The notes below the pieces were generated by a model. The model saw nothing but the letters and a program-made list of their open reading frames with translations, ran no database searches and had not been told where the DNA came from. Positions 10,763 to 31,335 of a DNA stretch of 64,000 bases are shown here, one piece after another (position 1 is the stretch's first letter; every line of letters starts with the position of its first letter). A program made the translations under genes and the position numbers. The stretch comes from an uncultured bacterium (lineage in GTDB: Bacteria; Patescibacteriota; JACMRA01), in the NCBI GenBank assembly GCA_963704645.1, contig OY969926.1:1124491-1188490 (forward strand), given 5' to 3'.

Positions 10763-12166
10763 ATGCGCCAAGCTAAACATACAAAAAAACATTTACACAA
10801 AAAACACAGACACCAGGCCAATTTAAATTCTAAAAAGTACGAACAAAATTTAAATTCCCAGACTAGTTTGTACAGCAAGTTGAAATCTATTATAGGCCGT
10901 TTTGGCCCAGGAATTATAACCGGTGCAAGCGATGATGACCCATCTGGAATTACCACATATTCTCAGGCTGGTGCCAGTTTTGGTTTTCAAACTTTGTGGA
11001 CTGTTGTTATTACCCTTCCATTAATGACTGCTGTTCAAGAAATGTGTGGCAGAATTGGACTGGTAACCAGCATGGGTTTAACCAAAGTTGTAAAAAAACA
11101 CTATCCAAAATGGGTAATTTACTTAATAGGGCTAGTAACCGTTCCTGCTATAATTTTAAACATAGCTGCAGATCTAGCTGGAATGGGAGCAGTTTCCAAC
11201 ATGCTTTTCCCGGCTATTCCAACTTGGGTTTTTACTATTTTGGCGGCTCTATCTATAATGTTTAGTCTAGTCTTATTTTCGTACAAAAAAATTGAAAATA
11301 TTTTGAAATGGTTAACTTTGGTTTTGCTGACATACTTAATTGTACCTTTCTTTATAACCCTAGATTGGGGCTATATTTTATACTCTATTGTTTCACCAAA
11401 AATACAATTTTCTAAGGAATATATTGCCATCATTGTAGGAATTTTAGGTACCACAATTTCACCATATTTATTTTTCTGGGAAGCCAGTATGGAAGTAGAA
11501 GAACACGAAGAAAAATATTCCAAAATTGGAGGTTTGGAGAAAAACACATTTGAAGCAAAGAGCGATGAAACTAATTTCGTAGAAGCTACAGTGGGCGAAG
11601 TTAAAACTATGCGTCAAGACAACGCTTTAGGAATGTTTCTTTCTAACTTTGTGATGTTCTTTATTATTTTAGTTACAGGTTCAGTACTATTTAACGGTGG
11701 AACTGGCGGTATTGACACAGTACAAGAAGCGGCAGCGGCACTAAAACCACTGGCAGGAGATTTTGCCTATTTACTATTTGCAGTTGGGGTAATTGGAACA
11801 GGTTTTTTGGCCATTCCAGTATTGGCTGGTGCTTGCGGCTATATTGTCTCAGAAATGTTTGATTGGCGTGAAGGCATGAACAACAAGTTTAAACAAGCCA
11901 GAGGTTTTTATGAAGTTATTTGTTTTTGTATTTTAATGGGATTAGGTTTAAACATTTCTGGTATTGACCCTATTCAAGGTATGATTTGGTCGGCTATAGT
12001 TTACGGAGTTACAGCGCCAATTTTAATTGGAATTATTATGCACATTGCTAACCGTGAAGACATTATGGGCAAATGGAAAAATGGTTGGCTGGTGAATATT
12101 TTAGGAGGTGCTGGGTTAGTTTTAATGACTGTGGCAGCTGTGGCTTTATTGGTGGTTGGGGTGTAA
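10763..12166 (+). CDS. NRAMP/SLC11-related transporter with a non-canonical metal site
   Basis: 467 aa with about 11 TM segments. GPGIITGASDDDPSGITTYSQAGASFGF aligns to the NRAMP TM1 block, but DPGN is replaced by DPSG. The TM6 MPH block is replaced by ISPY. Confidence 0.85.
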   Translation: MRQAKHTKKHLHKKHRHQANLNSKKYEQNLNSQTSLYSKLKSIIGRFGPGIITGASDDDPSGITTYSQAGASFGFQTLWTVVITLPLMTAVQEMCGRIGLVTSMGLTKVVKKHYPKWVIYLIGLVTVPAIILNIAADLAGMGAVSNMLFPAIPTWVFTILAALSIMFSLVLFSYKKIENILKWLTLVLLTYLIVPFFITLDWGYILYSIVSPKIQFSKEYIAIIVGILGTTISPYLFFWEASMEVEEHEEKYSKIGGLEKNTFEAKSDETNFVEATVGEVKTMRQDNALGMFLSNFVMFFIILVTGSVLFNGGTGGIDTVQEAAAALKPLAGDFAYLLFAVGVIGTGFLAIPVLAGACGYIVSEMFDWREGMNNKFKQARGFYEVICFCILMGLGLNISGIDPIQGMIWSAIVYGVTAPILIGIIMHIANREDIMGKWKNGWLVNILGGAGLVLMTVAAVALLVVGV

Positions 12167-12186
12167 AACAACCTAAATTTAAATAT

Positions 12187-13467
12187 ATGAGTTCAACTGT
12201 TGAAAGTTTTGCGACATCAAAAAATCAGATTAGCAATTACAAAAATGTTCCACCAAATGAAGAAAAGGTTGAACGGGTGGAAAAATTTATTGCAAGATTA
12301 CCTTTAAACGGAGAAGGGAATATTAATTTATATTTACTTGCTGTTGCAGTTTTGGATTATTCAATAAATGCTTCAGTTGAAGAAATTTACGAAGCATTGT
12401 TAAATGTTGGTGGAAATATTGTTTTTACAAAAGTTAAAGTTGAAAAAGGTATTTCATTAATAAAAGGGCAAGAGGAAAGAGTTAAATTGCAAAAAATTGA
12501 AAATCTTAGGAATTTTCTGAGCCAAATAATTTATCTAAATGGAAAAGGTGCAAAATTGGAATTAGTTAAAAGAAATACAGTTGAGGATATTAAATCAAAA
12601 GAACAGACTGAAGGGGAAATACTATTTAATGATTTTGTAGATTTTGCAATTAAAAACTCTGAGGAAATTATTGATACTTGTATAAGTAATGATGAAGAAG
12701 AGTTAGTTGTAAGCCGAGATTTAATTTCAGATTATTTTTATGATAATTTCTATTCTTCTAGTCCAGATCAAAACTTAGAAGTTTCAAAAGAAAAACAACT
12801 AGAATATAGACGTTTGGCCGATAAAGCCCAAGAAATTAATTCTCACATAGAGTATGATGAACGAGGCTGGTATAAAATTAAAGGTGGTAAATTGTATGAA
12901 TACAAAGAAGATGTTATTGGCAGAGTTTATTTTAACGTAGACCCCATGTTTGGGCCCAAGTTATTAAACCAATTGCAAGTTTTATTAAGCCAAAGAGTTT
13001 CTACTTTTCAAGCTAAAATTCCAGAAAGCTATGAAGATAGAAAAGATAACTGCGTATTATATTTTACCAAACAAGATCAAGCAGTAGTACTTGAAATAGT
13101 TAACCAGATTGCAACAAGTAATCAATTTATATTTAGAAATGAACTAGGGAAAGGTCAGAAAAAAATTTTAAAAGGAATTGGTTTTGCCCAAGATGCAACT
13201 GAAGGACCAAGTAAAGATTTTAGGTATTATGAAACGAACAATGATAATATTACTTCTTTTGGTGGAAAACTATCTTTCATTTTTGGCGTAGTATTTAAAG
13301 CAGTAATAGCAAGGCAGCTGGATTGGCAAAAAGATAAGGAAACTATAAAAGAACTGTATAACAAGATTTGTAAAATTCATAATGTTGACCCTAAAGACCC
13401 AGCTTTTCATATACAAGACAACAATTTTGAAACAATAAGAAATTTTGCAGAACAAAACACAGCTTAA
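12187..13467 (+). CDS. hypothetical protein (426 aa)
   Basis: The ORF track starts at 12073 inside the upstream transporter gene. The first ATG after that gene's stop is 12187 (MSSTVESF...). I could not place the family confidently. Confidence 0.7.
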   Translation: MSSTVESFATSKNQISNYKNVPPNEEKVERVEKFIARLPLNGEGNINLYLLAVAVLDYSINASVEEIYEALLNVGGNIVFTKVKVEKGISLIKGQEERVKLQKIENLRNFLSQIIYLNGKGAKLELVKRNTVEDIKSKEQTEGEILFNDFVDFAIKNSEEIIDTCISNDEEELVVSRDLISDYFYDNFYSSSPDQNLEVSKEKQLEYRRLADKAQEINSHIEYDERGWYKIKGGKLYEYKEDVIGRVYFNVDPMFGPKLLNQLQVLLSQRVSTFQAKIPESYEDRKDNCVLYFTKQDQAVVLEIVNQIATSNQFIFRNELGKGQKKILKGIGFAQDATEGPSKDFRYYETNNDNITSFGGKLSFIFGVVFKAVIARQLDWQKDKETIKELYNKICKIHNVDPKDPAFHIQDNNFETIRNFAEQNTA

Positions 13468-13483
13468 TTCCCCCAACAACAAA

Positions 13484-13507
13484 GGCGATGATTAACATCG
13501 CCCCTAC
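13484..13507 (-). repeat. GTAG-hairpin (REP-like) unit GTAGGGGCGATG-TTAAT-CATCGCC between convergent genes; probably also a terminator
   Basis: 7-bp stem at 13484-13490 / 13496-13502. The complement of GTAGG lies at 13503-13507. A T-run follows on the + strand. Confidence 0.6.
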
Positions 13508-13526
13508 CCTAATTTTTAGAAATAAA

Positions 13527-14081
13527 TTAGCTGTTAGACTTTAAGTATTCTAAAATTGTGTCTGCATCGGAAATTTCGAATGGATCTGTTGGACAGTCAT
13601 CAGAAAAACCTGGCTCTATGAACATTTTTGTAATTGTTCCATCTTCAACAACCATGGAGTATCTCCAAGATCTGTCACCAAAACCTAGATTGTTCTTTTT
13701 AACCAACATTCCCATTCCTCTTGTAAAATCTGCATTTCCATCTGGAAGTAAGAAAATGTTATTCACACCTTGTGCCTTTCCCCATTGGAACATTACGAAA
13801 GCATCGTTTACACTTAAACAAATTACTTCATCAACACCTAAGTCTTTGAAAGCTTGGTAATTGTTTTCATAACCTGGTAAATGTGTGCTGGAACATGTCG
13901 GTGTGAAGGCACCTGGTAAAGAGAATAAAACAATTTTCTTTCCTGCAAAAACATCGTTAGTAGATAAATCTTTCCAACTAAATTTGTTTGGACCTTCGGC
14001 ATTTTCATCGCGTACACGGGTTTTAAAAGTTACTTGTGGCACTTTCTGGCCTTCAATATTTTTGTGATCTGAACTGGACAT
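13527..14081 (-). CDS. peroxiredoxin, Prx5-like (AhpC/TSA family)
   Basis: Active-site context LPGAFTPTCS. 184 aa. Typical Prx5 length and layout. Confidence 0.9.
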   Translation of the reverse strand: MSSSDHKNIEGQKVPQVTFKTRVRDENAEGPNKFSWKDLSTNDVFAGKKIVLFSLPGAFTPTCSSTHLPGYENNYQAFKDLGVDEVICLSVNDAFVMFQWGKAQGVNNIFLLPDGNADFTRGMGMLVKKNNLGFGDRSWRYSMVVEDGTITKMFIEPGFSDDCPTDPFEISDADTILEYLKSNS

Positions 14082-14248
14082 ATATTTTAAATTTAATTTT
14101 TAATGGCAATTTCTTACCTAATTAATTAACATTTTAGAGGCACTTTTTGTCAAAGAATTTACCCTATCTATACAGAGCAGTCCAAACTTTGAATATTAAA
14201 AAATATAGACGTTTAGGCTTTTTACACTAATATTATTCTTGTACATTT

Positions 14249-14644
14249 ATGGAGAATTTTATAAAAAACTTTACAAACTGGTTTAGTTTAAAACCTGAGT
14301 TAGAATTCTTAAAAAGTTCTAAAAATTTTAATGAAAGAGAAATTTGGTGGACACATTTAGGCAGCAACTTAGGTTTTGAAATTGATGGTAAAACCTTACA
14401 ATACACCAGGCCAGCACTGATACTTAAAAAAATTTCTACCCAAACAGCATTAATACTTCCGCTTACCTCAAAAGACAAGAATGGAAGTTGGTACATTCCA
14501 ATAATTGTAGATGAAAAAGAAGGAAGAGTAATTCTTTCTCAAAGCCGAACTATAGATAGTAAAAGATTAAAATCCAGACTTGTGACTATTAATGAAAGAG
14601 AATTTAAAAATATAAAAGAAAAATTTATTCAATTTATTGGGTAA
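14249..14644 (+). CDS. PemK/MazF-family toxin-like protein with N-terminal extension, no adjacent antitoxin ORF
   Basis: REIWWTHLGSNLGFEIDGK...RPALIL...LPLTS...ILSQSRTIDSKRL matches the MazF/PemK fold pattern. Paralog of 19210-19605. Confidence 0.75.
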   Translation: MENFIKNFTNWFSLKPELEFLKSSKNFNEREIWWTHLGSNLGFEIDGKTLQYTRPALILKKISTQTALILPLTSKDKNGSWYIPIIVDEKEGRVILSQSRTIDSKRLKSRLVTINEREFKNIKEKFIQFIG

Positions 14645-14690
14645 AAATTGTCCTCCCATTTCTGGGAGGTTAGCGACTGACGTCGAAATT
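14643..14690 (-). ncRNA. candidate ~45-nt convergent small RNA ending in a GAAA-loop hairpin and T5 run overlapping the MazF stop codon
   Basis: Predicted only. It lies downstream of the promoter at 14725-14697. The stem is 14663-14669 / 14652-14658. The arrangement is duplicated at 19170-19218 with a compensatory stem change. Confidence 0.3.
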
Positions 14691-14696
14691 ACTATG

Positions 14697-14725
14697 ATAA
14701 TAATACTTACCATGACTTTTGTCAA
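14697..14725 (-). promoter_or_regulatory. sigma70-like promoter pointing toward the 3' end of the MazF-like gene
   Basis: On the minus strand: TTGACA (14725-14720), 17-nt spacer, TATTAT (14702-14697). Confidence 0.45.
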
Positions 14726-14959
14726 TTATGTATCCTTACTTTCCAATTTTATTTTCCCAATAAAATAACACAAAGGTAAACATTATCATGTTTCAGAATT
14801 ACAGTAACACCCTGATAAAGAAATATCAAGAAGAATTTTTACAACAAGTTAGTAGGTTTAAATCTTTTTGATTAATTTTCAACTGAAATAATTGCTAGAT
14901 AATAACTAAAATGTACAACCAGAGCAAACAAAGCCTTCAAATTATTTTGCTGAAAATAA

Positions 14960-16048
14960 CTACCCCGCCAAATTCTTAAGGTGGAACTTATTATAAGCCC
15001 AAGAGCCAAGCAATATTAGAAATACTGACGAGCCCATCAAAACTAATAGCTCTGGAATAATATCGCCCAAACCTTTGTTGAATTGCAAAACTTTTCTAAA
15101 AGCTTCTGTTGCATAAGCACTTGGAACTAGGCTGGTTAAACTTGGACCGCCAAAAATTTTAATCTCTGGAAAAGCCACGAAAGCTCCAGACAAAAAACCC
15201 AGAATTACCGAGGCCAGGGTTCCTATATTAGCTGCCAAATTGTCGTTTTTAAAGCTAGAAACTATAACCATGCCAAGACCAACTGTGAACAAATTAGTAG
15301 GAATTGAAACCAATAAAGCCAAGCTTAATGCCGACCAACTAGCTGAATAACCAAAAACTAGAACAGCCCCAAAAAGCAAAATGGTTTGAAACAAAGCTAT
15401 AACAGATTGACTTAATAAATGCCCAACAATTATCTGCCAACTTTGAACTTTGGCTGTAAAATACCTAAATGTATAATTTCGCCTAATTTCGTTGCTCATT
15501 TGGAAAATTATTTGAGGTAGTAAATTTAAAATTCCGTAAACAATTAAACCAGGAACAAGATAAGTAAAGGCCGTGGTTTTTTCAGAATTACTTACAGTAG
15601 AAACAACTTCTAATTTAGATTCATTTTGATAGAAAAACTGATTAGAATAACTGGAAATAATGCCAATAACAGCATTACTTTTAACACTGTAGGTATTGGC
15701 GTAAACTTTAACTTTAGGCTGTGTAGAAAATTCTAGGAAGGCGTCCAACTTACCATCTTGCACCTTACTTTTACCTTCTTCCAAATTAGCAATTTCAGAG
15801 ATTTCAAACTGGGAAACATTTTTAGGAGTTTTAATATTTTGCAATTCTTTAATAAAACTAGTCTGATACAAAGCCGAAGAATTTGATGAATAAGCTATTT
15901 TAAAAACCTGCTCACTGCTATTGGTGTTGAAAACCAAGGCAAATATTCCAATAAATACCACTGGTAAAATGAACACAATGGACCAGCTTTTAATGTCACG
16001 TAAAATATATAGCAGGTTTTTTTTAGCAATTGATAATGTTTTATTCAT
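14960..16048 (-). CDS. ABC-2 type transporter permease
   Basis: N-terminal TM, large extracytoplasmic loop, then a cluster of 5 TM segments. It lies immediately downstream of the ABC ATPase gene. Confidence 0.8.
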   Translation of the reverse strand: MNKTLSIAKKNLLYILRDIKSWSIVFILPVVFIGIFALVFNTNSSEQVFKIAYSSNSSALYQTSFIKELQNIKTPKNVSQFEISEIANLEEGKSKVQDGKLDAFLEFSTQPKVKVYANTYSVKSNAVIGIISSYSNQFFYQNESKLEVVSTVSNSEKTTAFTYLVPGLIVYGILNLLPQIIFQMSNEIRRNYTFRYFTAKVQSWQIIVGHLLSQSVIALFQTILLFGAVLVFGYSASWSALSLALLVSIPTNLFTVGLGMVIVSSFKNDNLAANIGTLASVILGFLSGAFVAFPEIKIFGGPSLTSLVPSAYATEAFRKVLQFNKGLGDIIPELLVLMGSSVFLILLGSWAYNKFHLKNLAG

Positions 16049-16069
16049 AAGTATTTTATGTAAAAAGTT

Positions 16070-17008
16070 TTATTCACGAATTTCTTTACCGGTAAGAATT
16101 AAGAAAATATCTTCCAAGGAAGGTTCTCTCATTTCCAAGTTATTAGTTTGAACATTTAAATTCGCTAGGGCAGGAAGTAATTCTTGCAACACAAAATTCG
16201 AATTTTTAGCCAGTAAACTAAAGCCTTTCTCTGAAAAAATAGCGGTTGGGAAAAGTAATTCTAAACCTAATATTTGTTCAGAATTTAAGCTATCTACTTT
16301 TACTTCAAGCAAAGTTCCGTTGCCATATTTTTCTTTTAATTCATCAACTGTGCCTTCAGCAATAATTAAACCATCATCTATAATAACTACATAATCACAT
16401 AGTTTTTCTGCCTCTTCCAAATAGTGATCGGTTAAAATTACAGCCTTGTTTTGGTTTTTTAAGTTTTTAATGAAGTCCCATAAAAATATTCTAGATTGAG
16501 GGTCAATTCCCGGTGAAGGCTCGTCTAAAAATACCATACTTGGATTATGAATAATAGAAATGGCTAAGTTTAACCTTCTTTTATATCCCCCAGAAAGATT
16601 TATTGCCAAAGTATTCAATTCCGATTGTAGGTTTAGGCCAGCAATTAAAATATCTGTATTTTCTTTAATTTGTTGTTTGCTCATACCCTGTAAAGACCCT
16701 GTAAATAAAAGGTTTTCGTGCAAAGTTAATTTATCCCAAATTACAATTTCTTGAGGCATAACACCTATTTTGCTTCTAAAATTACTTGGAACAAATTTAA
16801 AGGTTTCTCCTTCAATTTCAATCTCTCCAGAAGTTGGCGTAATTTGCCCTGAAAGCATTTTAATTATTGTAGATTTACCAGATCCGTTTGGACCAAGCAA
16901 TCCCAGAATTTGTCCTTGTCTAATTTGTAAACTAACATTTTTCACTGCTAGCTTAGAATTTTTGCCATCATTAAAACTTCTACTTAAATTGCGGGCATTT
17001 ATTTGCAT
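16070..17008 (-). CDS. ABC transporter ATP-binding protein
   Basis: Walker A GPNGSGKST, signature LSGGYKRRL, Walker B VFLDEP. Confidence 0.92.
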   Translation of the reverse strand: MQINARNLSRSFNDGKNSKLAVKNVSLQIRQGQILGLLGPNGSGKSTIIKMLSGQITPTSGEIEIEGETFKFVPSNFRSKIGVMPQEIVIWDKLTLHENLLFTGSLQGMSKQQIKENTDILIAGLNLQSELNTLAINLSGGYKRRLNLAISIIHNPSMVFLDEPSPGIDPQSRIFLWDFIKNLKNQNKAVILTDHYLEEAEKLCDYVVIIDDGLIIAEGTVDELKEKYGNGTLLEVKVDSLNSEQILGLELLFPTAIFSEKGFSLLAKNSNFVLQELLPALANLNVQTNNLEMREPSLEDIFLILTGKEIRE

Positions 17009-17058
17009 AAAGCCACTAACAATAGTTTTGAATTATTTGTAAACCCAACTTTAAAAGA

Positions 17059-17622
17059 TTATTCTGGTTTTGGTGCAGGTGCTTTGATGGTTTCATTAAC
17101 CGGCTTATAATTTTGTAAACCTGCAGGAACTGGAGCATCAATAGTTGAACCAGGAGGGTTAACTTTTATTGAAATATTATTATTTAGATTCACTTGCTCA
17201 TCTTTACTAAGTTCAACATTAAGATTGCCTTGTATTGGAAGCGGCACAACTTGTTGAGTACAGGTTTGAGCTTCAGAACTAGGAAGTTTGGAATCTAAAT
17301 TTAAAGTTAAAATAATTTTATCACCTAGCTTAGCTAAATTGTAAGATTTCAAAGATACACAGCCATTTTGGCCATAAACTTTACCGTTATAACTGATTGA
17401 TTTACTTTGGGTTGAATATTTAAAAAATATATCTTCCTTCTTAACATCTATCTGTACGTTTTCAGTTTTGCTAGCTGCTGTTTTGGGTTGGGTAAAAGTA
17501 TAGTATGCAAACAAACCACATACCAACAATATTACACCAAGAATTACTAAAATAATTGTTGTTCTATTACGCCCTGTAATTAAACTAGCCTGATTGTTAA
17601 AATTTGGGGTTAAAATATTCAT
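17059..17622 (-). CDS. membrane-anchored hypothetical protein
   Basis: Single N-terminal TM (TIILVILGVILLVCGLFAYYTF). Same strand as the ABC pair, just upstream of it. Confidence 0.65.
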   Translation of the reverse strand: MNILTPNFNNQASLITGRNRTTIILVILGVILLVCGLFAYYTFTQPKTAASKTENVQIDVKKEDIFFKYSTQSKSISYNGKVYGQNGCVSLKSYNLAKLGDKIILTLNLDSKLPSSEAQTCTQQVVPLPIQGNLNVELSKDEQVNLNNNISIKVNPPGSTIDAPVPAGLQNYKPVNETIKAPAPKPE

Positions 17623-17805
17623 ATTAAAGTTTTCTGCAATTGTTATTAGAGATTAATTTATGTTAGTTTAATATAGTTTCTTTAAATAAGCAAACAATTC
17701 AGGAGCAAGGATAATATTTCGTAATTCTCTAAATGTGTGTTCCATAAATGCTTATCATAAAGATGAAAAAATAACTACTAAAAAATATTCGCTGGAAGCT
17801 GTTAT

Positions 17806-19074
17806 TTATAATATATTTTCACGAACCTCATTTACCATTTGCATTTCTTCATTTGTAGGAATAATCCAAACTTGTATTGTAGAATTTTCGGAAGAAATTT
17901 TGACTGAACTTTTACATTCATCAGAATTTGCATTAACTTGAAGGTCTAAATTAAGCCCAAGAAAAGCAAATCTTTCACAAATTTTTTGACGAATTAAATG
18001 CGAACCTTCCCCAACTGCTCCACTAAATATTATAGCTTCAGCACCATCTAAAACCGATATATAAGCTCCTAACTTCTCTATAATTCTTTCCACAAAAAAG
18101 TCTAAAGCAAATTTAGCCTGCGGTTTAATATTATAGTCTTGAATGATAGTAACTAAATTGCTAGTATAACCCGATATTCCTAAAATACCAGATTTTTTAT
18201 TTAAAATTGTAGCTGTTTCCTGCCAGCTTAGGTTTTCAGCTTGATTATAAAAACTTAAAGCTTCCAAATTTACTTCCCCAGAACGTGTTCCCATTGGCAA
18301 ACCTTCGTTCGGGCTAAAACCCATGCTAGTTTGATAACTTTCACCATCTTTTATAGCGCAAAGGCTAGAACCACTTCCAAGATGTAAAGTAACAATTTTG
18401 CCCTTAGACAATCCATTATTTTTACTTAATGTTTTCTCGCTCGAGACATCGCTAACACCCTTGGCGGATACTAGCTGATCTACCAAGTTACCACTAAACT
18501 TGTTCTTGTAATATGTCTGCGATAGATATTTGTGGGAAAGTCCGTGAAACCCGAAGCGTTTTATTCCGCACTCTTTATAAGCTTTAATGGGAAGAGCGTA
18601 AATCTGATTAATTTCTGGTAAACTAGTGTGAAAAGCAGTATCAAAAACTGCTATTTGTTTAAGTTTGGTGAAGTTTTTTTGTAATAGTTTAATTTCAGCT
18701 ATAGCTGGCGGATTATGTAACGGAGCAATTTGATTTAACTTTTCCAATTCAACAATTACATTTTCATCAATTTGGGTTGAATTAGTAAATTTATTTCCCC
18801 CGTGAACAATTCTATGAATAACCGTTAATTCTAAAAAATTATCTACAATTTTTAATTCTTGAATTAAATTTAGAACTAAAATAGAACCTTCTAAATATTG
18901 CGATGAAGAAAGAGGGCGAGTTTCAACTTTATTATTAAAAGTAAACACAAACTGATACTCATTGGCCATGTAATTAGTTAATTTGCCAAACAGAATTGGA
19001 GAGTTGGAATTAGTAGGATAAAGGCTAAATTTTAAAGAAGAAGATCCTTTGTTTAAAGCTAAATAGTTGGGCAT
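17806..19074 (-). CDS. ackA: acetate kinase
   Basis: N-terminal ALNKGSSSLKFSLY, HRIVHGG and HLGSGSS motifs. It carries a ~30-aa insertion before HLGSGSS. Confidence 0.9.
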   Translation of the reverse strand: MPNYLALNKGSSSLKFSLYPTNSNSPILFGKLTNYMANEYQFVFTFNNKVETRPLSSSQYLEGSILVLNLIQELKIVDNFLELTVIHRIVHGGNKFTNSTQIDENVIVELEKLNQIAPLHNPPAIAEIKLLQKNFTKLKQIAVFDTAFHTSLPEINQIYALPIKAYKECGIKRFGFHGLSHKYLSQTYYKNKFSGNLVDQLVSAKGVSDVSSEKTLSKNNGLSKGKIVTLHLGSGSSLCAIKDGESYQTSMGFSPNEGLPMGTRSGEVNLEALSFYNQAENLSWQETATILNKKSGILGISGYTSNLVTIIQDYNIKPQAKFALDFFVERIIEKLGAYISVLDGAEAIIFSGAVGEGSHLIRQKICERFAFLGLNLDLQVNANSDECKSSVKISSENSTIQVWIIPTNEEMQMVNEVRENIL

Positions 19075-19134
19075 AGGTTGATTTTAATGAAGTGTATAAG
19101 TCTGAGCTTGAATTTGTAACTAAATTAAATAGTG

Positions 19135-19163
19135 TTGACATAAATTATAACAAATGTTCTAAT
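19135..19163 (+). promoter_or_regulatory. sigma70-like promoter pointing toward the 3' end of the second MazF-like gene
   Basis: TTGACA (19135-19140), 17-nt spacer, TCTAAT (19158-19163). Confidence 0.4.
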
Positions 19164-19169
19164 TAGCTT

Positions 19170-19218
19170 ACAAATTGCCGTTAGGTACGACCTCTCAGAA
19201 ATGAGAGGGTTAATTTTT
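19170..19218 (+). ncRNA. candidate ~50-nt convergent small RNA (second copy)
   Basis: Predicted only. Hairpin CCTCTCA-GAAA-TGAGAGG (19191-19208) followed by a T5 run (19214-19218) that overlaps the last codons of 19210-19605. Confidence 0.3.
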
Positions 19219-19605
19219 GCCCAAAATAATCTGAGACATTTTTCTTTTAAGAATCAATAATTCGTTATCACTAATTTTTCCAAGTTTGTAGCTTAATCTT
19301 TGTACATCTATAGCTTTCATCTGAGAAAGTAAAACTGATATATTTTTCTGACGCATTTTTAAATTGAAATAATATTTATTATCTTTAATTTTAGAACTTG
19401 TTGGCAAACCATAGAATAGTTTATGGTTGAACTTTCGTATTATCACAACTGGACGTAAAAACTGGTCACCTTTTCCGTTTTCCTCATGACCTATATTTTC
19501 TCCTAAATGACACCACCATATCTCCGCTTCTCTAAAAACCGGGTATTTTTCATTTTCATGTAATTTTGGTTTTAACTTAAACCAGTCCAAAAAGTTTTTA
19601 ATCAT
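19210..19605 (-). CDS. PemK/MazF-family toxin-like protein with N-terminal extension, no adjacent antitoxin ORF
   Basis: AEIWWCHLGENIGHEENGK...RPVVII...LPTSS...LLSQMKAIDVQRL. Roughly one-third identical by eye to 14249-14644. Confidence 0.75.
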   Translation of the reverse strand: MIKNFLDWFKLKPKLHENEKYPVFREAEIWWCHLGENIGHEENGKGDQFLRPVVIIRKFNHKLFYGLPTSSKIKDNKYYFNLKMRQKNISVLLSQMKAIDVQRLSYKLGKISDNELLILKRKMSQIILGKN

Positions 19606-19719
19606 ACTTTTGTTTATATTTTATGCTTAATAAGCTACAATTTTTAGGCAAGAAAAAAGACCAATGTATTTTTGTACAAAGGCCTATTTAAAATATTACT
19701 CAATCGAGAATGGGCATGT

Positions 19720-20403
19720 TTAGAAACCAGCTGTAGGGCTTCCAAAAATTTCCACTTCCACTTTTTTATCTCTCAAATATACCAGACTGTCTGGATACTT
19801 GAAATCGATGGTTAGCGGGAAATTTCCCAAACCTTGGTAATCACCAATAACTATTTTCCGCTCCCCCTTCTTCTCACCTAAACTTAGGCCGTAAGCTTCG
19901 TCAGTTTTAGGACCTTTGGTGGTTACTTGAAACTGGAGTTTTAGACCAGTTGCAGTTTTCGCAATTGAATGACACTCAATTGCAGACTGCAATTTAGGCT
20001 CACCATTTTCATCAAGCCAAAAGCTTAGAAGAGTAGGATAGCCATTTGGCATTATCATTTTCACATGAATAAGCTTTGTTCCAGGCCAGCTGACTGACAC
20101 TTCATAAGCTCTTCTGTCTGAAGAAACAAATGTCTCTTTTTTTACTGTTTGCTGGCCATATTTTGACTGTTGGTTCGCAAGCCAATTTTTAGTTGCACTA
20201 GCCATATCTTTCTCAAAGTCATCAAAACTTAGCTGATAAACTAGCTTTGGTGAGGTTAGCTCGATCTGCTGTACAGGATTTTCTGTGTTGGTGGGTTGTG
20301 TTAAAGTTTGCGTAACTCCACAAGCATTTAAACTAACAACACAAAAAACGCTGACAAGTAGAAAAGTCACAAACTGCAAAACTTTTTTTAATGAGCGAGT
20401 CAT
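19720..20403 (-). CDS. putative lipoprotein
   Basis: Signal peptide with lipobox VVSLNAC-G. 227 aa. Confidence 0.7.
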   Translation of the reverse strand: MTRSLKKVLQFVTFLLVSVFCVVSLNACGVTQTLTQPTNTENPVQQIELTSPKLVYQLSFDDFEKDMASATKNWLANQQSKYGQQTVKKETFVSSDRRAYEVSVSWPGTKLIHVKMIMPNGYPTLLSFWLDENGEPKLQSAIECHSIAKTATGLKLQFQVTTKGPKTDEAYGLSLGEKKGERKIVIGDYQGLGNFPLTIDFKYPDSLVYLRDKKVEVEIFGSPTAGF

Positions 20404-20507
20404 CTTGAAATCTCCATCAATTATAAGTGAATTATAGTTTTAAACTATACTTATATAAAAGCACATATTTTGGGTTAAAGCAAGCTTGTTTTTCTTTTAT
20501 TTTCCCA

Positions 20508-21854
20508 CTATATTCCCATGTTGTTATAATGTGTGCCGAAAGATAATATATTAATTTGCCCGTCATAGCCTTGGTTCATACAAAGTCTATTTTTATCGTT
20601 AAGTCTGGCTGACATAAAACAATTTGCCCCATTTTTGATAAATTCTAAGTTTAGGCCTTTGTAATTAGAGTAATGGCTAACAAAAGCCTCCAGATTTCCA
20701 CCACATTGTGCTATAAGTTTAAAAATATCTGTTATTTTCTGTACATTTTTGTAGTTGTTTAGAACCGACATTGAGTTATTTTTATAAGCCTTGTTTTCAA
20801 TTTTATAATTAATACCTAGAGATGTTAAATTGTGTTTTAGTAGTTCTATACCAGTGTAATTAGCGTAGTCTTGCTGTGTTTCATAAGTAGTGCTTTCCGC
20901 TTCTTGATAAGGCTGATATTGATATTCGTACTCATAATTTTGCTCTGGCTCAGAGCTTTCATATCCTCGTTCAAAACTCTCAGGCTCTTCTATTAAACTT
21001 TCCTCTTGATCATCTAAATTATCATCTGCAGAGGTTTCACGATCAAGCAACCAATAGGTATTATTTATAATTTGATGTAATACAGACTCATTGCTTTTAA
21101 AACCATCAAACATCACAGCAGGATTATTTTGTATTGGAACTAAAATATCGCTTTGGAAATTATACCCAAAAGCTGTTTGCAATGTTGCTCTAGTGTCATT
21201 TAATGTAGTACTGATAAAGCCTGTAGTAAGATTTACATTTTTTGCTCTGCTAGATTTGGCAAAACCAGTTTGTTTAACTCTATCCATAGTGTTATTTTCC
21301 AGCTTAATCACGCCCATTTTATCTAAATTTATTAGCGAAAGCCCTAGTGATGAATGTAAACGTACCAGCTCTATTAATAAATTTTCAGTGTCCCAATATC
21401 CTTCACCGGAATCAGGGTTAACCATAAACAATGAACCAAGTCTTGAATTTCTTAAATTTTTAACGTCATTCAAAACGTACAAGCTTACTATCATTAAATA
21501 AATACATTTATAGTTTATACTTAGAATGTTTTCAGTGTCACCTTGGTCTATTGAATTAGCAATTTCATCCATAACCTCTTTAGTAAGATTTATGCAATCT
21601 TCAAGAAAGTCACCTGGCCCGCCTTGGCTACTCCATTTACCAGATAAAATACCTGATAATAATAAGTTTTCAATTTCATCTAATATATAATATGTCTGAT
21701 ATCTTGTGTCAAAATTTTCAAAGTAATTAATTAAGTCTAAGCCTTCTTTTCTCAATGCCCATCTTTCTGTTGAATTAAGATTTTTCTCTAAGAAAAATAA
21801 TATCCCTTTATATACATCTGATCTTGTATCTTCAAAATAACTGTCTCTTTCCAT
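20508..21854 (-). CDS. hypothetical protein with an acidic/Tyr-rich linker and a C-terminal RelE/ParE/YoeB-like domain
   Basis: The last ~95 aa (INYKIENKAYKN...QKITDIFKLIAQ...FMSARLNDKNRLCMNQGYDGQINILSFGTHY) follow the RelE/YoeB pattern (YKIEFS.., ..SRRI..HRLVY......I.I...G.H.Y). The N-terminal ~330 aa are unassigned. Confidence 0.7.
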   Translation of the reverse strand: MERDSYFEDTRSDVYKGILFFLEKNLNSTERWALRKEGLDLINYFENFDTRYQTYYILDEIENLLLSGILSGKWSSQGGPGDFLEDCINLTKEVMDEIANSIDQGDTENILSINYKCIYLMIVSLYVLNDVKNLRNSRLGSLFMVNPDSGEGYWDTENLLIELVRLHSSLGLSLINLDKMGVIKLENNTMDRVKQTGFAKSSRAKNVNLTTGFISTTLNDTRATLQTAFGYNFQSDILVPIQNNPAVMFDGFKSNESVLHQIINNTYWLLDRETSADDNLDDQEESLIEEPESFERGYESSEPEQNYEYEYQYQPYQEAESTTYETQQDYANYTGIELLKHNLTSLGINYKIENKAYKNNSMSVLNNYKNVQKITDIFKLIAQCGGNLEAFVSHYSNYKGLNLEFIKNGANCFMSARLNDKNRLCMNQGYDGQINILSFGTHYNNMGI

Positions 21855-21903
21855 AATAAAATTAACTCAAGCACAAAAATTTAAGTTTAGCAAAATATTT
21901 TGC

Positions 21904-24387
21904 CTACCCCTGCTCTTCCCATTTCCAACTCAAAACCTCTGGTAAATCATTTCCGTTTTCAACAATGTATTTTTTGTGTTCTACTAGTTTTGATTTTAAG
22001 ATTTGGATTAATTCTACAGACTTTTCTGCTATAATTGAATTATTTTTTGAGGCTATTTCCAAAGCTTTAATTGCCATGTCAAACCTTGATGTTCCATTTA
22101 AAACTTGCATGTCAAAAGGTGTTGTTGTACTGCCTTGTTCCATATAACCCAAAATTGTGGTTTTACTAGCTAAACTTGTACCATACAAAATTTGTTTTAA
22201 AGCACTTGGGTAACCGTGGAAGTTTATTAAAACTTCAGTATTTTCTGGGAAAATTCGCTTATAAATTTGTTCAGCATTTTCAGTCGAGGAGACAGCACCC
22301 AAACCAAAACTAGTTAGCTGGCTTATATTTACATATTTAAATGAAAGTTCTGGAGCGTTTTGTTTCAGCCAGCTAATTGCAGCCATAGTTTCCAAAGTTT
22401 GATAGTCGCCAGCTGAAGCTAAAATAATATCTGGAGATGAATTTTGAGAGTTGTTTACACCAGAATTACCAGCAAATTCCCATTCCATAATACCTGCTTC
22501 AACTTGAGCTTTAGCCTTATTTACATCAAGCCATTGTGGAAGATCAGTTTTACCTGCTACAATTAAATTTACAGTGTTATTTTCGGTTAAAACTTTTTTT
22601 GCAACTTCTAAACCAATATTAACATCTACTGGGAAATATACATTGGCGAAATCTACATTTTTAGATAGCAAAGTATTAATTAGAACAGGGTTTTGATGCG
22701 TAAAACCGTTATGATCTTGCCTCCAAGTTGTGCTGGTTGCAATGTAATTCATGCTTGGTCTACTGCCCCTCCAATTAAATTTGTTCGCCTGACTGGAATA
22801 CTTAATAAATTGGTCAATTTGACTTATAATAATGGCTAGAAAAGCTTCGTAAGAAATTAAAATACCGTAACCCCCAAAGGCATTATAACCTTGCATCCAG
22901 CTTTGCAAAGTTTGCTCGCTAAGTATCTCCATAATTTGTCCACTTTCACCTAAATTGTCGTCCCATTCTTTTAGTGGAAGATTAAAAACTCTGTCTGTGT
23001 TTTCGTATAAAGTTTCTAATCGGTTAGACTCGGCTTCGTCTGGGGAAAAAATTCTGAATTTATTTGGGTTCTGGCTAATAATTTGGCTTAAATATTTTGA
23101 AACATGAACCATTAAATTACCATTTTGACCTTTAACTAAAGTTTGGATTTGGAAGTTTAAAATATCAGGCAAAGCAAGCGGTTGATTAGCTAATGATAAA
23201 GTTGATTGAATATTACCAAGTCTATTTTCTGGGGATGGTAAAAACTTTGTTACTTCTGGACGCACCGTGTTTTGCAATGTGTCTACCAGCTCTTCAATTT
23301 TGTAAGATTCAAGCCAGCTTTTTAGCACTTCAAATTCAGCTTTATTTTGTTTAGGATTTTTTAAAGGAAGCCCGTGAGCCAAATTATTTCCTTCAATTTT
23401 CCCCCCATTAGCAAATTTCGGCCCAGTCCAACCCTTCAAAGTTCGCAGTAAAATAACAGGTAATTTAGTGGTTTTACCAGCTTTATAATTTACAATTTGT
23501 TGATAAGCTAAGGTTAAAGTTTCCAAATACGTTGTAAGCCATTCTTCACTTTCATTTAAATCAGCAAAGTTCTGAGTAACCAAAAATGGTTTATAATTTA
23601 AGCCTTCAAAGTACTTAAATAAATCTTCATCACTCATTCTGCTGTATACAGTTGGGCCAGAAATTTTGTAATCATTTAAGTGTAAAATTGGTAGAACAGC
23701 TCCGTCAGATTCACGGTTAATAAATTTATTACTTTGCCAAGAAGCAGCCAAAGCACCAGTTTCAGCCTCACCGTCACCAACCACGCAAACCGTAATTAAA
23801 TGGGGGTTAGATAATATAGAGCCATAAGCTAAACCAAGAGAATAACCTAACTCTCCCCCTTCATTTATACTACCAGGGAGACCAGGATAAGTGTGACTTG
23901 GAAAGCCTTCAGGCCAGCTAAAATTTTTAATTAGGTTTTCTGCACCAGTTAAAGTTTCAGGGTATTGTGGGTAATATTTGCCTAAACTTCCCTCAAGCCA
24001 CAAATTGCTTAAAATAGCAGGAGCTCCATGCCCTGGCCCAACAATTAACAACATTTTTGCAGGGGAATACTGGTCATTTAACGTCTCACCTACTTTCTTA
24101 ACATCTTCAGTAGCGGAGAATCTTGATTCTCCATTTCCAATGTGCAAGTTAAAATTCAACCAATTCAAACCAGCATAAATTAAATTAAGCCCTGGAACAG
24201 TTCCCCAATGCCCAACTACTCTTTCTTTCAAATGATGTTCAACTAATGGTTCTTCCAACCAAAAATTATCTTTTAAATATAAAGTAGAAACAGAAATATA
24301 GTTAGTTAAACGAATATTTTTTATTAGCCAGTCTAAATCTGCACTGTATTTATTTTTATTTAAAGGATTTTTTGAAGTTTCCGGCAT
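21904..24387 (-). CDS. xfp: xylulose-5-phosphate/fructose-6-phosphate phosphoketolase
   Basis: 827 aa. VVGHWGTVPGLNLIYAGLN, GPGHGAPA and the TPP-binding GDGEAETG blocks are typical of phosphoketolases. Confidence 0.95.
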   Translation of the reverse strand: MPETSKNPLNKNKYSADLDWLIKNIRLTNYISVSTLYLKDNFWLEEPLVEHHLKERVVGHWGTVPGLNLIYAGLNWLNFNLHIGNGESRFSATEDVKKVGETLNDQYSPAKMLLIVGPGHGAPAILSNLWLEGSLGKYYPQYPETLTGAENLIKNFSWPEGFPSHTYPGLPGSINEGGELGYSLGLAYGSILSNPHLITVCVVGDGEAETGALAASWQSNKFINRESDGAVLPILHLNDYKISGPTVYSRMSDEDLFKYFEGLNYKPFLVTQNFADLNESEEWLTTYLETLTLAYQQIVNYKAGKTTKLPVILLRTLKGWTGPKFANGGKIEGNNLAHGLPLKNPKQNKAEFEVLKSWLESYKIEELVDTLQNTVRPEVTKFLPSPENRLGNIQSTLSLANQPLALPDILNFQIQTLVKGQNGNLMVHVSKYLSQIISQNPNKFRIFSPDEAESNRLETLYENTDRVFNLPLKEWDDNLGESGQIMEILSEQTLQSWMQGYNAFGGYGILISYEAFLAIIISQIDQFIKYSSQANKFNWRGSRPSMNYIATSTTWRQDHNGFTHQNPVLINTLLSKNVDFANVYFPVDVNIGLEVAKKVLTENNTVNLIVAGKTDLPQWLDVNKAKAQVEAGIMEWEFAGNSGVNNSQNSSPDIILASAGDYQTLETMAAISWLKQNAPELSFKYVNISQLTSFGLGAVSSTENAEQIYKRIFPENTEVLINFHGYPSALKQILYGTSLASKTTILGYMEQGSTTTPFDMQVLNGTSRFDMAIKALEIASKNNSIIAEKSVELIQILKSKLVEHKKYIVENGNDLPEVLSWKWEEQG

Positions 24388-29223: not shown

Positions 29224-31335
29224 ATGTTTCAAAAAATGCTGGCTAAAATTTTTAATGTTTCCCCAGAAGTTATAGAATTTATTTCCGACTCAAGACAGAA
29301 TTTTAAACAAAGACTTATTGTACTTGCTCCTCTTACAGCTTGGGCAAGTTTTTTCGCCGCTATAAGCCCACTTATTTTGAAGTTAATAATTGATAGTTTA
29401 ACCAATAATTGGACTAGCTTTGCAGGAATTCCGCTTGGCTCTGTAGTTTTAGTTTTTACTGTTATAATTATTGGGCTTGGGGTTATTAATTTATTAGATA
29501 ACATTTTTAATTATTTTAAACAGGTTCTACTTTTAAAAATAAATCAGCAAACAGAAACTTTTATTGAAGATAAATTCATGCAGTTTTTAACCAAATTTGA
29601 TGGAGCATTTTTGGGCAGCGAAAACAACCTAAGGTTAATTAGAAATTTGCAGTGGAACATTCAACCTACCCAAACAAAAATGTTACAAATTGGGCAAGAT
29701 ACTGTTCAAACTATTGTGGGTGTTGCAACCTTAATTTTCATTATTCCTTTAATTCACCCTTTGCTAATAATTTTAATTGTTATTTCTGTTCTTGCTGATT
29801 CAGTTTTAGACTATTTTCAGAACCAAAGCTGGCGAAGTTACGAGCTTTTAGAAAGCAGGCAAAGCAGCCAAAAAAGTGAATTAAATTGGCGAATTATTTG
29901 GCATTTTAACAAACTTTTAGAAAACGGTTGGATAGGCCAAATTTTAGATTCATACAGACAAAGAAGAGGTAAGTGGATGAAAACCGCTTTCGCCCAAAAA
30001 TATAATGACCAAGTATTTAGTTTATTTATAAATTTTTCTACCAGCTTACTTAGGGTTGGAACTTTATTTATAGCTGGATGGCTATTTTTGAACGGGCAAA
30101 TTGAAATTGGAACACTAGTTGTATTCGAGCTTTACATTACCCAGATTAAAAACCAAATGCAAAGTTTTGGGAACATTTTTAGAAATTTAATAGAACTAAG
30201 ATTCGAACTTTTTAGATACGATTTTTTAATTCATATTCAGCCAAAACTAGATTACACAATTTCAGAAAAGCCCGTTTTTAAAGAAATTGATAACTTGGTA
30301 ATTTCCAATCTTAACTTCACCTACCCTAAATTTTATGAAGAAGAACAGGCATATCTTCAGCAAATGAAACAAAGAATTACAGGCATTAATGACAGTGAAA
30401 ATCAGAGCAAAATTTTAGTACATTTAAAAGCTGTAAAGGAAAGTATTAAACTAAATAAAGGTAATAAAAACAACTTTGTTTCTAGGCAAATATTACTTTT
30501 CAAAAACTGGATAAAGCTGGTAATTTCCAATCATTCTTTGAATATAAGTTTGCGTAAAAACTTGGTTGAAGAGTTAGAAGAATTAGATAAAATGTTTAAC
30601 GGAACTCAGTTTCAAAAAACTGTTTTGAATAGCATAAATTTAAACTTGGAAAAAGGTAAGATATACGGAATTGTTGGCGAAAATGGAGCTGGAAAAACTA
30701 CATTAATGAAACTAATAAAACGCTCTATAGATACTACTTCTGGAGATATTTTAATTAGCAGCCAGAATTTGAATGAGAAGTACAAACTAAAAAACATTGA
30801 TCCACTTTTCTGGAAAAAATATATTGGAAATATAGATCAAAACAACTTTTTGTGGGAAGCCCTAACCGTGAAAGAAAATTTGTTTTTAGGACTGGAAAAA
30901 GATGAGATAGAAAAAATAACAGATGAAAATATTTATGCAATTTTGAAAGAACTGGAGCTGGATAAAAAAATTGAGAATTTAGATTTAATTATTGGCGAAA
31001 ATTTGGAGCTTAGTGGAGGCCAAAAACAACTACTTGAAATAGCCAGAATTGCTTTGCAAAAAAAGCCAATTATTATTTTAGACGAGGCTACAAATCAGCT
31101 AGATGCTAACAAAGAAGAGCTTGTAGTTAATTTACTGCAAAAACTAAAACAAAACTCTATAATAATTTTTATTACTCACCGTATGACCACAACCAATAAA
31201 TGCGATGAGATTATAATTTTGGAAAATGGAGTTGTTTCGGAGGTTAGTACACCAGCACTACTTCTAAAATCTAAGCAAGCTAACTTATTCAAAACTTTTT
31301 GGAACAAGCAAATTAGTCCAAACTTGAACTTATAA
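29224..31335 (+). CDS. ABC exporter, fused permease/ATPase (MsbA-like type I exporter)
   Basis: Six N-terminal TM segments. Walker A GENGAGKTT, signature LSGGQKQLL, Walker B IILDEAT. Confidence 0.9.
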   Translation: MFQKMLAKIFNVSPEVIEFISDSRQNFKQRLIVLAPLTAWASFFAAISPLILKLIIDSLTNNWTSFAGIPLGSVVLVFTVIIIGLGVINLLDNIFNYFKQVLLLKINQQTETFIEDKFMQFLTKFDGAFLGSENNLRLIRNLQWNIQPTQTKMLQIGQDTVQTIVGVATLIFIIPLIHPLLIILIVISVLADSVLDYFQNQSWRSYELLESRQSSQKSELNWRIIWHFNKLLENGWIGQILDSYRQRRGKWMKTAFAQKYNDQVFSLFINFSTSLLRVGTLFIAGWLFLNGQIEIGTLVVFELYITQIKNQMQSFGNIFRNLIELRFELFRYDFLIHIQPKLDYTISEKPVFKEIDNLVISNLNFTYPKFYEEEQAYLQQMKQRITGINDSENQSKILVHLKAVKESIKLNKGNKNNFVSRQILLFKNWIKLVISNHSLNISLRKNLVEELEELDKMFNGTQFQKTVLNSINLNLEKGKIYGIVGENGAGKTTLMKLIKRSIDTTSGDILISSQNLNEKYKLKNIDPLFWKKYIGNIDQNNFLWEALTVKENLFLGLEKDEIEKITDENIYAILKELELDKKIENLDLIIGENLELSGGQKQLLEIARIALQKKPIIILDEATNQLDANKEELVVNLLQKLKQNSIIIFITHRMTTTNKCDEIIILENGVVSEVSTPALLLKSKQANLFKTFWNKQISPNLNL

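Follow-up and report, generated by a model that had tools for sequence, protein, structure and literature searches.

MazF proteins are textbook type II toxins, defined by their protein antidote, and a Kid/MazF-like fold is found in the toxins of type III systems. Precedents for a convergent antitoxin RNA with an overlap at the 3′ end of the toxin gene are the txpA/RatA and bsrG/SR4 pairs of Bacillus subtilis; to our knowledge, the known type I toxins are all small membrane peptides, with no ribonuclease (RNase) among them. The subject of the present analysis is a 64,000-nucleotide (nt) stretch of DNA (hereafter the window) from an uncultured bacterium of the Patescibacteriota (lineage JACMRA01; assembly GCA_963704645.1, contig OY969926.1), in which a predicted gene for a small RNA (sRNA) at positions 19135–19218 of the plus strand (locus 2) runs convergently into the 3′ end of a lone MazF-type toxin gene; a paralogous unit lies near positions 14249–14725 (locus 1). 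It is very likely that the sRNA gene is real and linked to the toxin, and it is likely that the sRNA is the antitoxin of the adjacent gene. By analogy, the cassette is most likely a self-contained two-gene unit of the cjrA/cjpT kind.

The cjrA/cjpT pair, in which cjrA is the RNA antitoxin and cjpT the protein toxin, is located on plasmid pVir of Campylobacter jejuni 81-176; the passages of two later papers that mention it describe a plasmid-stabilizing toxin–antitoxin system of type I and credit it to Shen et al. 2016, Mol Microbiol 101:909, PMID 27291507 (cited in PMC10470494 and PMC7826846). The locus in the window shares with this pair a toxin of the same PemK/MazF subfamily that is not accompanied by a protein antitoxin, and a convergent sRNA with its own strong promoter, in which a short 5′ tail precedes the hairpins and which extends as far as the stop codon of the toxin gene. 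On the other hand, the Campylobacter RNA (very probably CJpv3) comprises 77 nt and three hairpins, whereas the RNA predicted in the window comprises 49 nt and two hairpins, and the former is plasmid-borne in a pathogen of the Campylobacterota, whereas the latter is chromosomal in an uncultured low-GC bacterium.

Other described systems resemble the locus in part. The likeness to the type III systems ToxIN, CptIN and TenpIN would consist, by analogy, in an endoribonuclease toxin, a structured RNA in excess and a possible pseudo-substrate module. However, the toxin of the window is a true PF02452 MazF according to Pfam and Foldseek, not a ToxN, CptN or TenpN protein, and has no match in PADLOC; its RNA is single-copy, in contrast to arrays of 2–5.5 repeats, and is convergent, downstream and equipped with its own promoter, in contrast to an RNA encoded upstream in the same operon behind a leaky terminator. 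As in the type I pairs txpA/RatA, bsrG/SR4 and bsrE/SR5, a convergent sRNA with an independent strong promoter overlaps the 3′ end of the toxin messenger RNA (mRNA), and in a longer form of the cassette found in relatives the terminator is also shared with the toxin gene. By contrast, the type I toxins are small hydrophobic peptides, whereas the present one is a soluble RNase of 131 amino acids (aa), and their antitoxins are 100–220 nt long, with long overlaps and little conservation outside close relatives, whereas here the RNA shares 9 nt with the open reading frame (ORF), or 28 nt in the long form, and is conserved in its non-overlapping part. With the type II systems MazEF and PemIK (Kis-Kid), the locus has in common the fold and family of the toxin, including the catalytic positions; it differs in that no mazE/pemI-like gene is present and in that the toxin has an extra N-terminal helix and a 5-residue insertion. 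Thus, the locus is not of type II, because no protein antitoxin is present; it fits poorly with type III, because it has neither an upstream repeat array in one operon nor a ToxN-type toxin, and with type I, because the toxin is not a small membrane peptide. The module fits the single described case, cjrA/cjpT, and the window contains the short, two-hairpin form of an undescribed RNA family: in the literature searched and in Rfam, no description of this family, of its structure or of its spread in the Patescibacteria was found, and an Rfam scan of positions 12000–22000 at an expectation value (E) of ≤5 gave no family at either locus.

Conservation of the RNA Gene Across Related Loci

The RNA gene was compared across 160 related loci, 80 from genomes (predominantly Patescibacteria, plus a few Rickettsiales, Omnitrophota and Campylobacterota) and 80 from metagenomes. 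By eye, a unit is recognizable just past the toxin stop codon, on the opposite strand, in approximately 75 of the 80 genome loci, and its consensus is a TTGACA-17-TATAAT promoter, then (U)ACAAAUGGCUUCGGCC, then a second hairpin. The genome set yielded 60 matches to a covariance model built from 11 seed units (R1), nearly all of them directly 3′ of the toxin and convergent with it, and a second covariance model (R2) located the unit at 72 of the 80 metagenome loci (E ≤ 1) in the same position and orientation; the extra matches of the models lie mostly beside extra toxin paralogs. Single-sequence folds gave the same two hairpins in nearly all loci.

Covariation was assessed in alignments built by covariance model, because the first MAFFT alignments had misplaced hairpin 2. 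The paired cells amount to 99.8% and 99.1% in two alignments, and compensatory changes occur at 9 of the 10 pairs, with both partners changed in 99 and 103 cells. Across the loci, all 7 pairs of hairpin 2 show changes on both sides, and two of the three modelled pairs of hairpin 1, the loop of which is mostly UUCG in the family, covary as GC/UA/GU and GC/CG/AU. The covariation score was 0.45–0.49, as against 0.14 in shuffles and ≤0.11 when the partners were slid. The raw sequences carry the same swaps (GGC/GCC, GCC/GGC, UCC/GGA, CCC/GGG and ACC/GGU). In addition, UUCG and GNRA loops arise only on the strand of the sRNA, whereas the toxin strand would give CGAA and UUGC; it is therefore the antisense transcript that folds.

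The promoter is conserved together with the RNA. Among 55 distinct loci, the −10 box occupies positions −12 to −7 relative to the first base of the RNA, with T at −12 and A at −11 each at a frequency of 0.89 and T at −7 at 0.96; an extended −10 TG is present as well, and TTG is enriched at −35 to −33. Among the closest relatives of the locus 2 toxin (51–75% protein identity), the TTGACA box does not change, the spacer varies freely, hairpin 2 covaries, and GUUAAUUUUU is invariant; the conserved C-terminus of the toxin (…GKN-stop) is the complement of this last sequence. Within the RNA, the tail and hairpin 1 are 87% identical across the loci, the tail bases ACAAA being 92–98% conserved, whereas the stems of hairpin 2, at 63% identity, are the most variable part in the family.

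These data bear on the view that there is no RNA gene here, but merely an ordinary or chance terminator combined with chance promoter hexamers in AT-rich DNA. Generic scans of the region around locus 2 are compatible with that view, since promoter-like sites numbered 35 where 34.1 were expected from shuffles, and terminator-like sites, with hairpin 2 among those listed, numbered 8 where 5.1 were expected; likewise, the locus 2 sequence occurs in no RNA run. The scans are non-significant on their own, and the significance of the unit derives instead from the comparison with related loci. There, the whole unit recurs at fixed spacing in more than 100 loci, with covariation, and its pVir counterpart has a very strong mapped start and a Northern band (PMC3656092). 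A terminator of a neighboring gene was rejected as an explanation for the hairpin, because no plus-strand gene exists upstream of the unit for it to end (both ackA and the toxin gene are minus-strand genes), and the T-run is on the wrong side to serve the toxin gene. The view that no RNA gene exists is therefore highly improbable, and the proposal of the earlier note, which was made from the DNA letters alone, that a functional convergent sRNA unit rather than a chance terminator accompanies this second MazF paralog is supported by the recurrence of the unit in most of the 160 loci, by the covariation, by the fixed promoter and by the lack of an upstream plus-strand gene.

Layout of Locus 2

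The features of both loci are listed in Table 1. At locus 2, the positions that the earlier note had assigned to the promoter boxes, the 17-nt spacer, the hairpin, the T-run and the ORF were every one exact on re-reading. The RNA is predicted to start at A19170 with a 6-nt tail, ACAAAU, and the T5 run that is predicted to form its 3′ end covers the last two sense codons of the toxin ORF, the stop codon of which (TAA) is the reverse complement of 19210–19212. The predicted RNA folds with −15.3 kcal/mol (z = −3.6), and none of 200 shuffles folded as well. It scores 53.9 bits (E = 1.8e-6) with R1 and 48.4 bits (E = 8e-9) with R2, of which it is the sole full-length match in the window with filters off. 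The overlap of this short-form RNA with the toxin ORF is only 9 nt, and the most conserved part of the RNA is outside the ORF.

Table 1. Features of the two toxin–sRNA units in the window (positions of the 64,000-nt stretch).
Feature	Position	Strand	Basis or detail
Locus 2, −35 box TTGACA	19135–19140	+	read in sequence; invariant in 8 closest relatives aligned
Locus 2, −10 box TCTAAT, 17 nt after −35 box	19158–19163	+	read in sequence
Locus 2, predicted 49-nt sRNA: tail ACAAAU, hairpin 1, linker CGA, hairpin 2, GUUAA, U5	19170–19218	+	both ends predicted
Locus 2, hairpin 1, UGCC-GUUA-GGUA, 4 base pairs	19176–19187	+	fold; 2 of 3 modelled pairs covary across loci
Locus 2, hairpin 2, CCUCUCA-GAAA-UGAGAGG, 7 base pairs; doubles as terminator stem in the clade of the window	19191–19208	+	covariation; terminator-like in scan
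Locus 2, U5 run, predicted 3′ end; overlaps Lys-Asn codons of toxin	19214–19218	+	read in sequence
Locus 2, lone PemK/MazF-family toxin gene, 131 aa, N-terminal helix extension	19210–19605	−	PF02452, AlphaFold2, Foldseek
Locus 1, toxin paralog, 131 aa	14249–14644	+	PF02452, E = 8.3e-12
Locus 1, sRNA unit	14643–14725	−	−35 TTGACA 14725–14720; −10 TATTAT 14702–14697; predicted 48-nt RNA 14690 to 14643

On the minus strand, a promoter-like sequence, TTGTAA-18-(TG)TATAAT, is present at 19144–19173. This site and the sRNA promoter overlap in a back-to-back arrangement. It could serve ackA (17806–19074); it is a match at the level of the scan only, of a class that occurs at chance frequency in this region.

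Long and Short Forms of the RNA

Common to all forms of the RNA are the tail, hairpin 1 and hairpin 2. In the long form, seen at 45 of the 52 loci scored, these are followed by a 14-nt linker, 61% of which is A, and by a 26-nt hairpin 3 that starts 3 nt before the stop codon and has a constant overlap of 28 nt with the ORF; the median length of the predicted RNA is 77 nt. The last eight codons of the toxin thus encode the terminator of the long-form RNA. Because the A-rich linker is a U-tract on the toxin strand, hairpin 3 can terminate both transcripts, and such a bidirectional terminator would leave the conserved 5′ module outside the toxin mRNA. In one long-form locus (L056, 3340–3372), the codons …KLKALLP-stop encode a 26-nt hairpin that is probably a bidirectional terminator, and hairpin 3 of this type covaries while still coding, which implies a dual constraint. 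The short form, to which the clade of the window belongs, was found at 7 of the 52 loci; it does not have hairpin 3, its terminator being hairpin 2 and the U-run, and its RNA is 45–49 nt long and overlaps the ORF by a few bases.

Some relatives depart from the single-module plan. In L136 (1595–1676, minus strand), two complete modules of hairpin 1 and hairpin 2 stand in tandem in one convergent sRNA, and in L045 (approximately 2440–2533, minus strand) there is a duplication of hairpin 2; such an expansion into repeats brings to mind the arrays of type III antitoxins. In L016 (2936–2976, minus strand), and with identical sequence in L113 (1136–1176, minus strand), a second copy of the sRNA lies just upstream of the toxin start and faces away from it. 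This extra copy has no recognizable toxin on its own 3′ side and may be an orphan or the remnant of a decayed cassette.

The Toxin and Its Missing Protein Antidote

The toxin of locus 2 matches PF02452 with 47.4 bits (E = 2.4e-12) and that of locus 1 with 45.7 bits, both above the cut-off of 23.1. The AlphaFold2 model of the locus 2 protein (predicted local distance difference test score, 85) shows a MazF barrel with an extra N-terminal helix formed by residues 3–18, and the top 50 Foldseek matches listed are all structures of the MazF/PemK family (TM, 0.60–0.79; probability, 1.00), the best of them being MazF of Staphylococcus aureus, B. subtilis, Mycobacterium tuberculosis and Escherichia coli. 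The family profile aligns with B. subtilis EndoA/MazF (4mdx) at 2.5e-8. In this alignment, the invariant R51-P52 of the toxin corresponds to the RP motif of EndoA, and the P68-T-S-S stretch to the region of Thr48; we take Arg25 and Thr48 of B. subtilis MazF to be the catalytic residues (from 4MDX). The catalytic Arg and Thr/Ser positions thus appear to be conserved in the locus 2 toxin, and the ORF product is, as judged from its sequence and model, a MazF-type endoribonuclease that is apparently active.

Relative to classical MazF, the toxin has two additions, the helix 3–18 and a 5-residue insertion before the RP motif. An alignment of the window proteins with pVir0047 (the homolog on pVir) and with members from Nitratiruptor, Helicobacter suis and the Candidate Phyla Radiation has the invariant residues W8, K12, G35, N37, G39, E41, G44, R51, P52, P68, Q95 and R103. 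The subfamily is large: when clustered at 50% identity, it yields 555 clusters with a cut-off of E ≤ 1e-30 and 2022 with one of E ≤ 1e-10. Among the NCBIfam and PADLOC models no subfamily-specific or defence-system match was found.

A protein antitoxin was sought and rejected. The upstream neighbor of the locus 2 toxin is a lipoprotein-like ORF of 227 aa, and no mazE/pemI-like gene is present in the cassette; at locus 1, the upstream neighbor is a divergent ORF that was named peroxiredoxin-like by eye from its sequence. An all-against-all BLAST of the ORFs within 400 nt of the toxin in 80 loci revealed no conserved neighbor other than second toxin copies, the remaining matches being antisense frames of the toxin or of the sRNA, and the same-strand upstream ORFs of ≥35 aa are unrelated housekeeping genes or spurious.

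Two Toxin–sRNA Pairs in One Genome

Locus 1 presents the same layout as locus 2, as the earlier note had observed in calling the latter a second copy of the unit with its spacing, stem and position relative to the stop codon preserved: in both, the −35 box is followed by 17 nt, the −10 box, 27 nt, the hairpin, 4–5 nt and T5. Allowing ≤3 mismatches, the hairpin has two copies in the window, at 19191–19208 (plus strand) and at 14652–14669 (minus strand), where shuffles gave an expectation of 0.02 and none of 100 shuffles gave ≥2; a single compensatory change, C:G to U:A, distinguishes the two stems. The two toxins had been considered about one-third identical, and the actual value is 40% over 127 aa. 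It had also been noted that the 5′ parts of the two RNAs differ. This is correct for their sequences but not for their structures, since both begin with a 5–6-nt tail and continue with a 4-base-pair hairpin that has a 4-nt loop (GUUA or GUCA); the two RNAs, of 49 and 48 nt, fold with z = −3.6 and −3.9, and in neither case did any of 200 shuffles fold as well. With filters off, R2 recognized hairpin 2 alone at locus 1 (14.8 bits), which, compared with its full-length match at locus 2, implies that the two RNAs belong to different sequence classes. It is plausible that the two RNAs may each be specific to the toxin of their own locus.

Hairpin 2 of the two loci is identical at 16 of 18 positions, despite a toxin identity of 40% and a mean hairpin 2 identity of 63% in the family; this likeness could reflect homogenization within the genome or a shared constraint of the host. 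Double cassettes are found elsewhere: contigs among the related loci (L026, L123, L131/L134 and L053) have two toxin-plus-sRNA cassettes, each paralog with its own convergent sRNA. The cassettes are adjacent in L026, L123 and L131, whereas the copies in L053 are identical, approximately 2 kb apart and in opposite orientation.

The Counterpart on Campylobacter pVir and Its Plasmid Relatives

A tblastn search of plasmids revealed members of the toxin subfamily in Campylobacter, Helicobacter and Nitratiruptor. The homolog on pVir of C. jejuni 81-176 (CJJ81176_pVir0047, 134 aa) is 33% identical to the window protein and carries the invariants of the subfamily (W8, K12, G-N-G-E-G and RP), together with the N-terminal W/K helix and the loop insertion. 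A promoter, TTGATT-17-TATAAT, faces pVir0047. In a published map of transcription starts made by dRNA-seq, a start at 31119 (minus strand) reaches a read height of 16164, as against 28 at the toxin's own start at 30608 (plus strand) (PMC3656092), and the sRNA beginning there, CJpv3 (31119–31043, 77 nt), is positive by Northern blot (Dugar et al. 2013, PMC3656092, supplementary Tables S5 and S12). This mapped start lies 7 nt after TATAAT; the coding sequence of pVir0047 ends at 31038 and CJpv3 ends 5 nt past the stop codon, and the RNA folds into a 6-nt tail and three hairpins.

In the pVir plasmid of strain IA3902, a small ORF and a YafQ-family toxin occupy the place of pVir0047 and CJpv3 between the same flanking genes. 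One plasmid slot has exchanged its cassette (81-176, 30634–31119; IA3902, 30375–30924). The abstract of Shen et al. 2016 reportedly names two systems, of the pVir plasmids of 81-176 and of IA3902 "respectively". From the swap of the slot, cjpT would be pVir0047 and cjrA would be CJpv3, and the two are very probably the published cjrA/cjpT system; no literature text linking the names cjpT, pVir0047 and CJpv3 was found.

Plasmids of Nitratiruptor (L082, 1875–1932, minus strand) and H. suis (L083, 1890–1960, minus strand) encode toxins of the same subfamily, and each has a convergent promoter and an RNA of two or three hairpins that abuts the stop codon (z = −3.5 and −3.2); neither RNA was detected by the model of the Patescibacteria RNA.

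The pVir data also bear on whether the sRNA is an antitoxin at all. It could be a real, toxin-linked RNA with a different task, as a cofactor, a guide or a preferred substrate of the toxin, or as a travelling regulator of other genes, since linkage and conservation alone leave the sign of the effect unset. The recognition core of E. coli MazF resembles ACA, and the 5′ ACA of the sRNA recalls that core; in addition, the extra RNA copy of L016/L113 stands without a recognizable toxin on its own side. Such a task is nevertheless unlikely, because the cassette contains no other antitoxin candidate and a lone active MazF would be lethal, because the ratio of RNA to toxin starts on pVir, 16164 to 28, fits an antidote in excess, and because the pVir cassette fills the slot of a type II toxin–antitoxin pair in the sister plasmid. 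Moreover, a functional RNA antitoxin is reported for 81-176 pVir in the passages cited above (PMC10470494, PMC7826846).

Proposed Mode of Action of the sRNA

In the mechanism that we propose, the consensus sigma-70 promoter would start the RNA in the window's organism at about A19170. In the folded transcript, a short tail (ACAAAU) would remain single-stranded ahead of two tetraloop hairpins, and the RNA would end at the U-run over the toxin stop codon. This abundant RNA may bind the toxin directly through the module of tail, hairpin 1 and hairpin 2 and block its RNA-binding groove in the manner of a type III pseudo-substrate, so that the RNase is kept inactive; loss of the cassette or a halt in RNA synthesis would free the toxin. 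The 3′ overlap with the toxin mRNA may add a second layer, either antisense pairing or sharing of a terminator. That direct protein binding is the main mode, possibly combined with antisense action, is put forward tentatively, at a chance somewhat short of even.

Several features favor direct binding. In the long form, the module that is conserved is the one that is unable to pair in cis, and its tetraloops are suited to stable display rather than to kissing. Pairing in trans between the 5′ module and the ribosome-binding region of the toxin was rejected, because cognate pairs are no better than non-cognate ones (cognate −13.75 vs. −13.98 kcal/mol for the translation start region; median rank, 20 of 40), and this lack of cognate pairing also argues for binding to the protein. 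Additionally, the short form keeps the 5′ module while it loses almost all of the overlap with the ORF, the toxin is itself an RNA-binding enzyme with a family-specific Trp/Lys helix and a 5-residue insertion, and the module is duplicated in tandem in rare relatives (L136 and L045).

The alternative that bears most directly on these features is that the RNA is indeed the antitoxin but acts in a type I-like manner by cis-antisense pairing only, with the 3′ end or untranslated region of the toxin mRNA, which would be degraded, for example by RNase III, or whose expression would be blocked; the hairpins would then serve only for stability and termination. The two genes are convergent without exception, the RNA invariably reaches or overlaps the stop codon with its 3′ end, and in the long form it extends over a constant 28 nt of the ORF, all of which favors this mode; at locus 2, where no toxin-strand terminator is predicted, each of the 49 nt would have its complement in the toxin mRNA. 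On the other hand, the primary sequence of an antisense RNA need not be conserved, yet ACAAAU and hairpin 1 are 87% identical among loci whose toxins are 36–62% identical to the query. UUCG and GNRA tetraloops are poor partners for loop–loop initiation, the conserved module of the long form lies beyond the bidirectional terminator, where it would have no complementary partner, and the known type I toxins are small membrane peptides, not RNases. Antisense pairing as the sole mode is thus possible, if rather doubtful.

Other points weigh against the mechanism proposed here. An RNA with protein binding as its sole action would have no need of the strictly convergent, abutting position, which points to some role for the overlap, whether in antisense pairing or as a shared terminator. 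A terminator scan around locus 2 predicted none on the toxin strand in the short form of the window; the toxin mRNA therefore probably covers the whole sRNA gene, and a full duplex of 49 base pairs is possible. The U-run begins 5 nt beyond the stem of hairpin 2, and termination may be weak. The covariation alignments, having been fitted to the model, are biased in its favor, and transcript and ends at locus 2 are predictions, its sequence being present in 0 RNA runs and in 1 sediment-metagenome DNA run. As for the Campylobacter counterpart, R2 does not match CJpv3, so that the relation at the RNA level is one of position and architecture only, and the passage of PMC10470494 that names CjrA labels it an antisense type I antitoxin.

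Implications for MazF Toxins of the Patescibacteria

It is tempting to speculate that direct binding extends beyond the two loci of the window. A large MazF clade (at least 555 clusters, and approximately 2000 at E ≤ 1e-10, mostly from Patescibacteria) may have replaced MazE with a structured sRNA that binds the toxin directly, a view that we consider possible without calling it probable. The 5′ tail and the tetraloop hairpins would then act as a mimic of a substrate or of a product, docking would take place at the N-terminal Trp/Lys helix and the loop insertion, both specific to the family, and paralogs such as those of the two loci would be kept apart by differences in the tail and hairpin 1. 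If so, the clade would represent a new toxin–antitoxin class that bridges types II and III, and, if direct binding is true, its RNA would be a natural, compact inhibitor (approximately 40 nt) of a MazF nuclease. The two diverged pairs within one genome provide a ready test of RNA–protein specificity.

For genome annotation, the finding concerns thousands of MazF copies that have no antitoxin gene and are called "orphan" or "type II". Such orphans, including both copies in the window, carry a conserved RNA gene that annotation has missed, and the presence of this gene beside them would explain how a lone RNase gene can be tolerated. The gain is an RNA family that is absent from Rfam and a simple rule for the re-annotation of a toxin subfamily that is common in the small genomes of the Patescibacteria.

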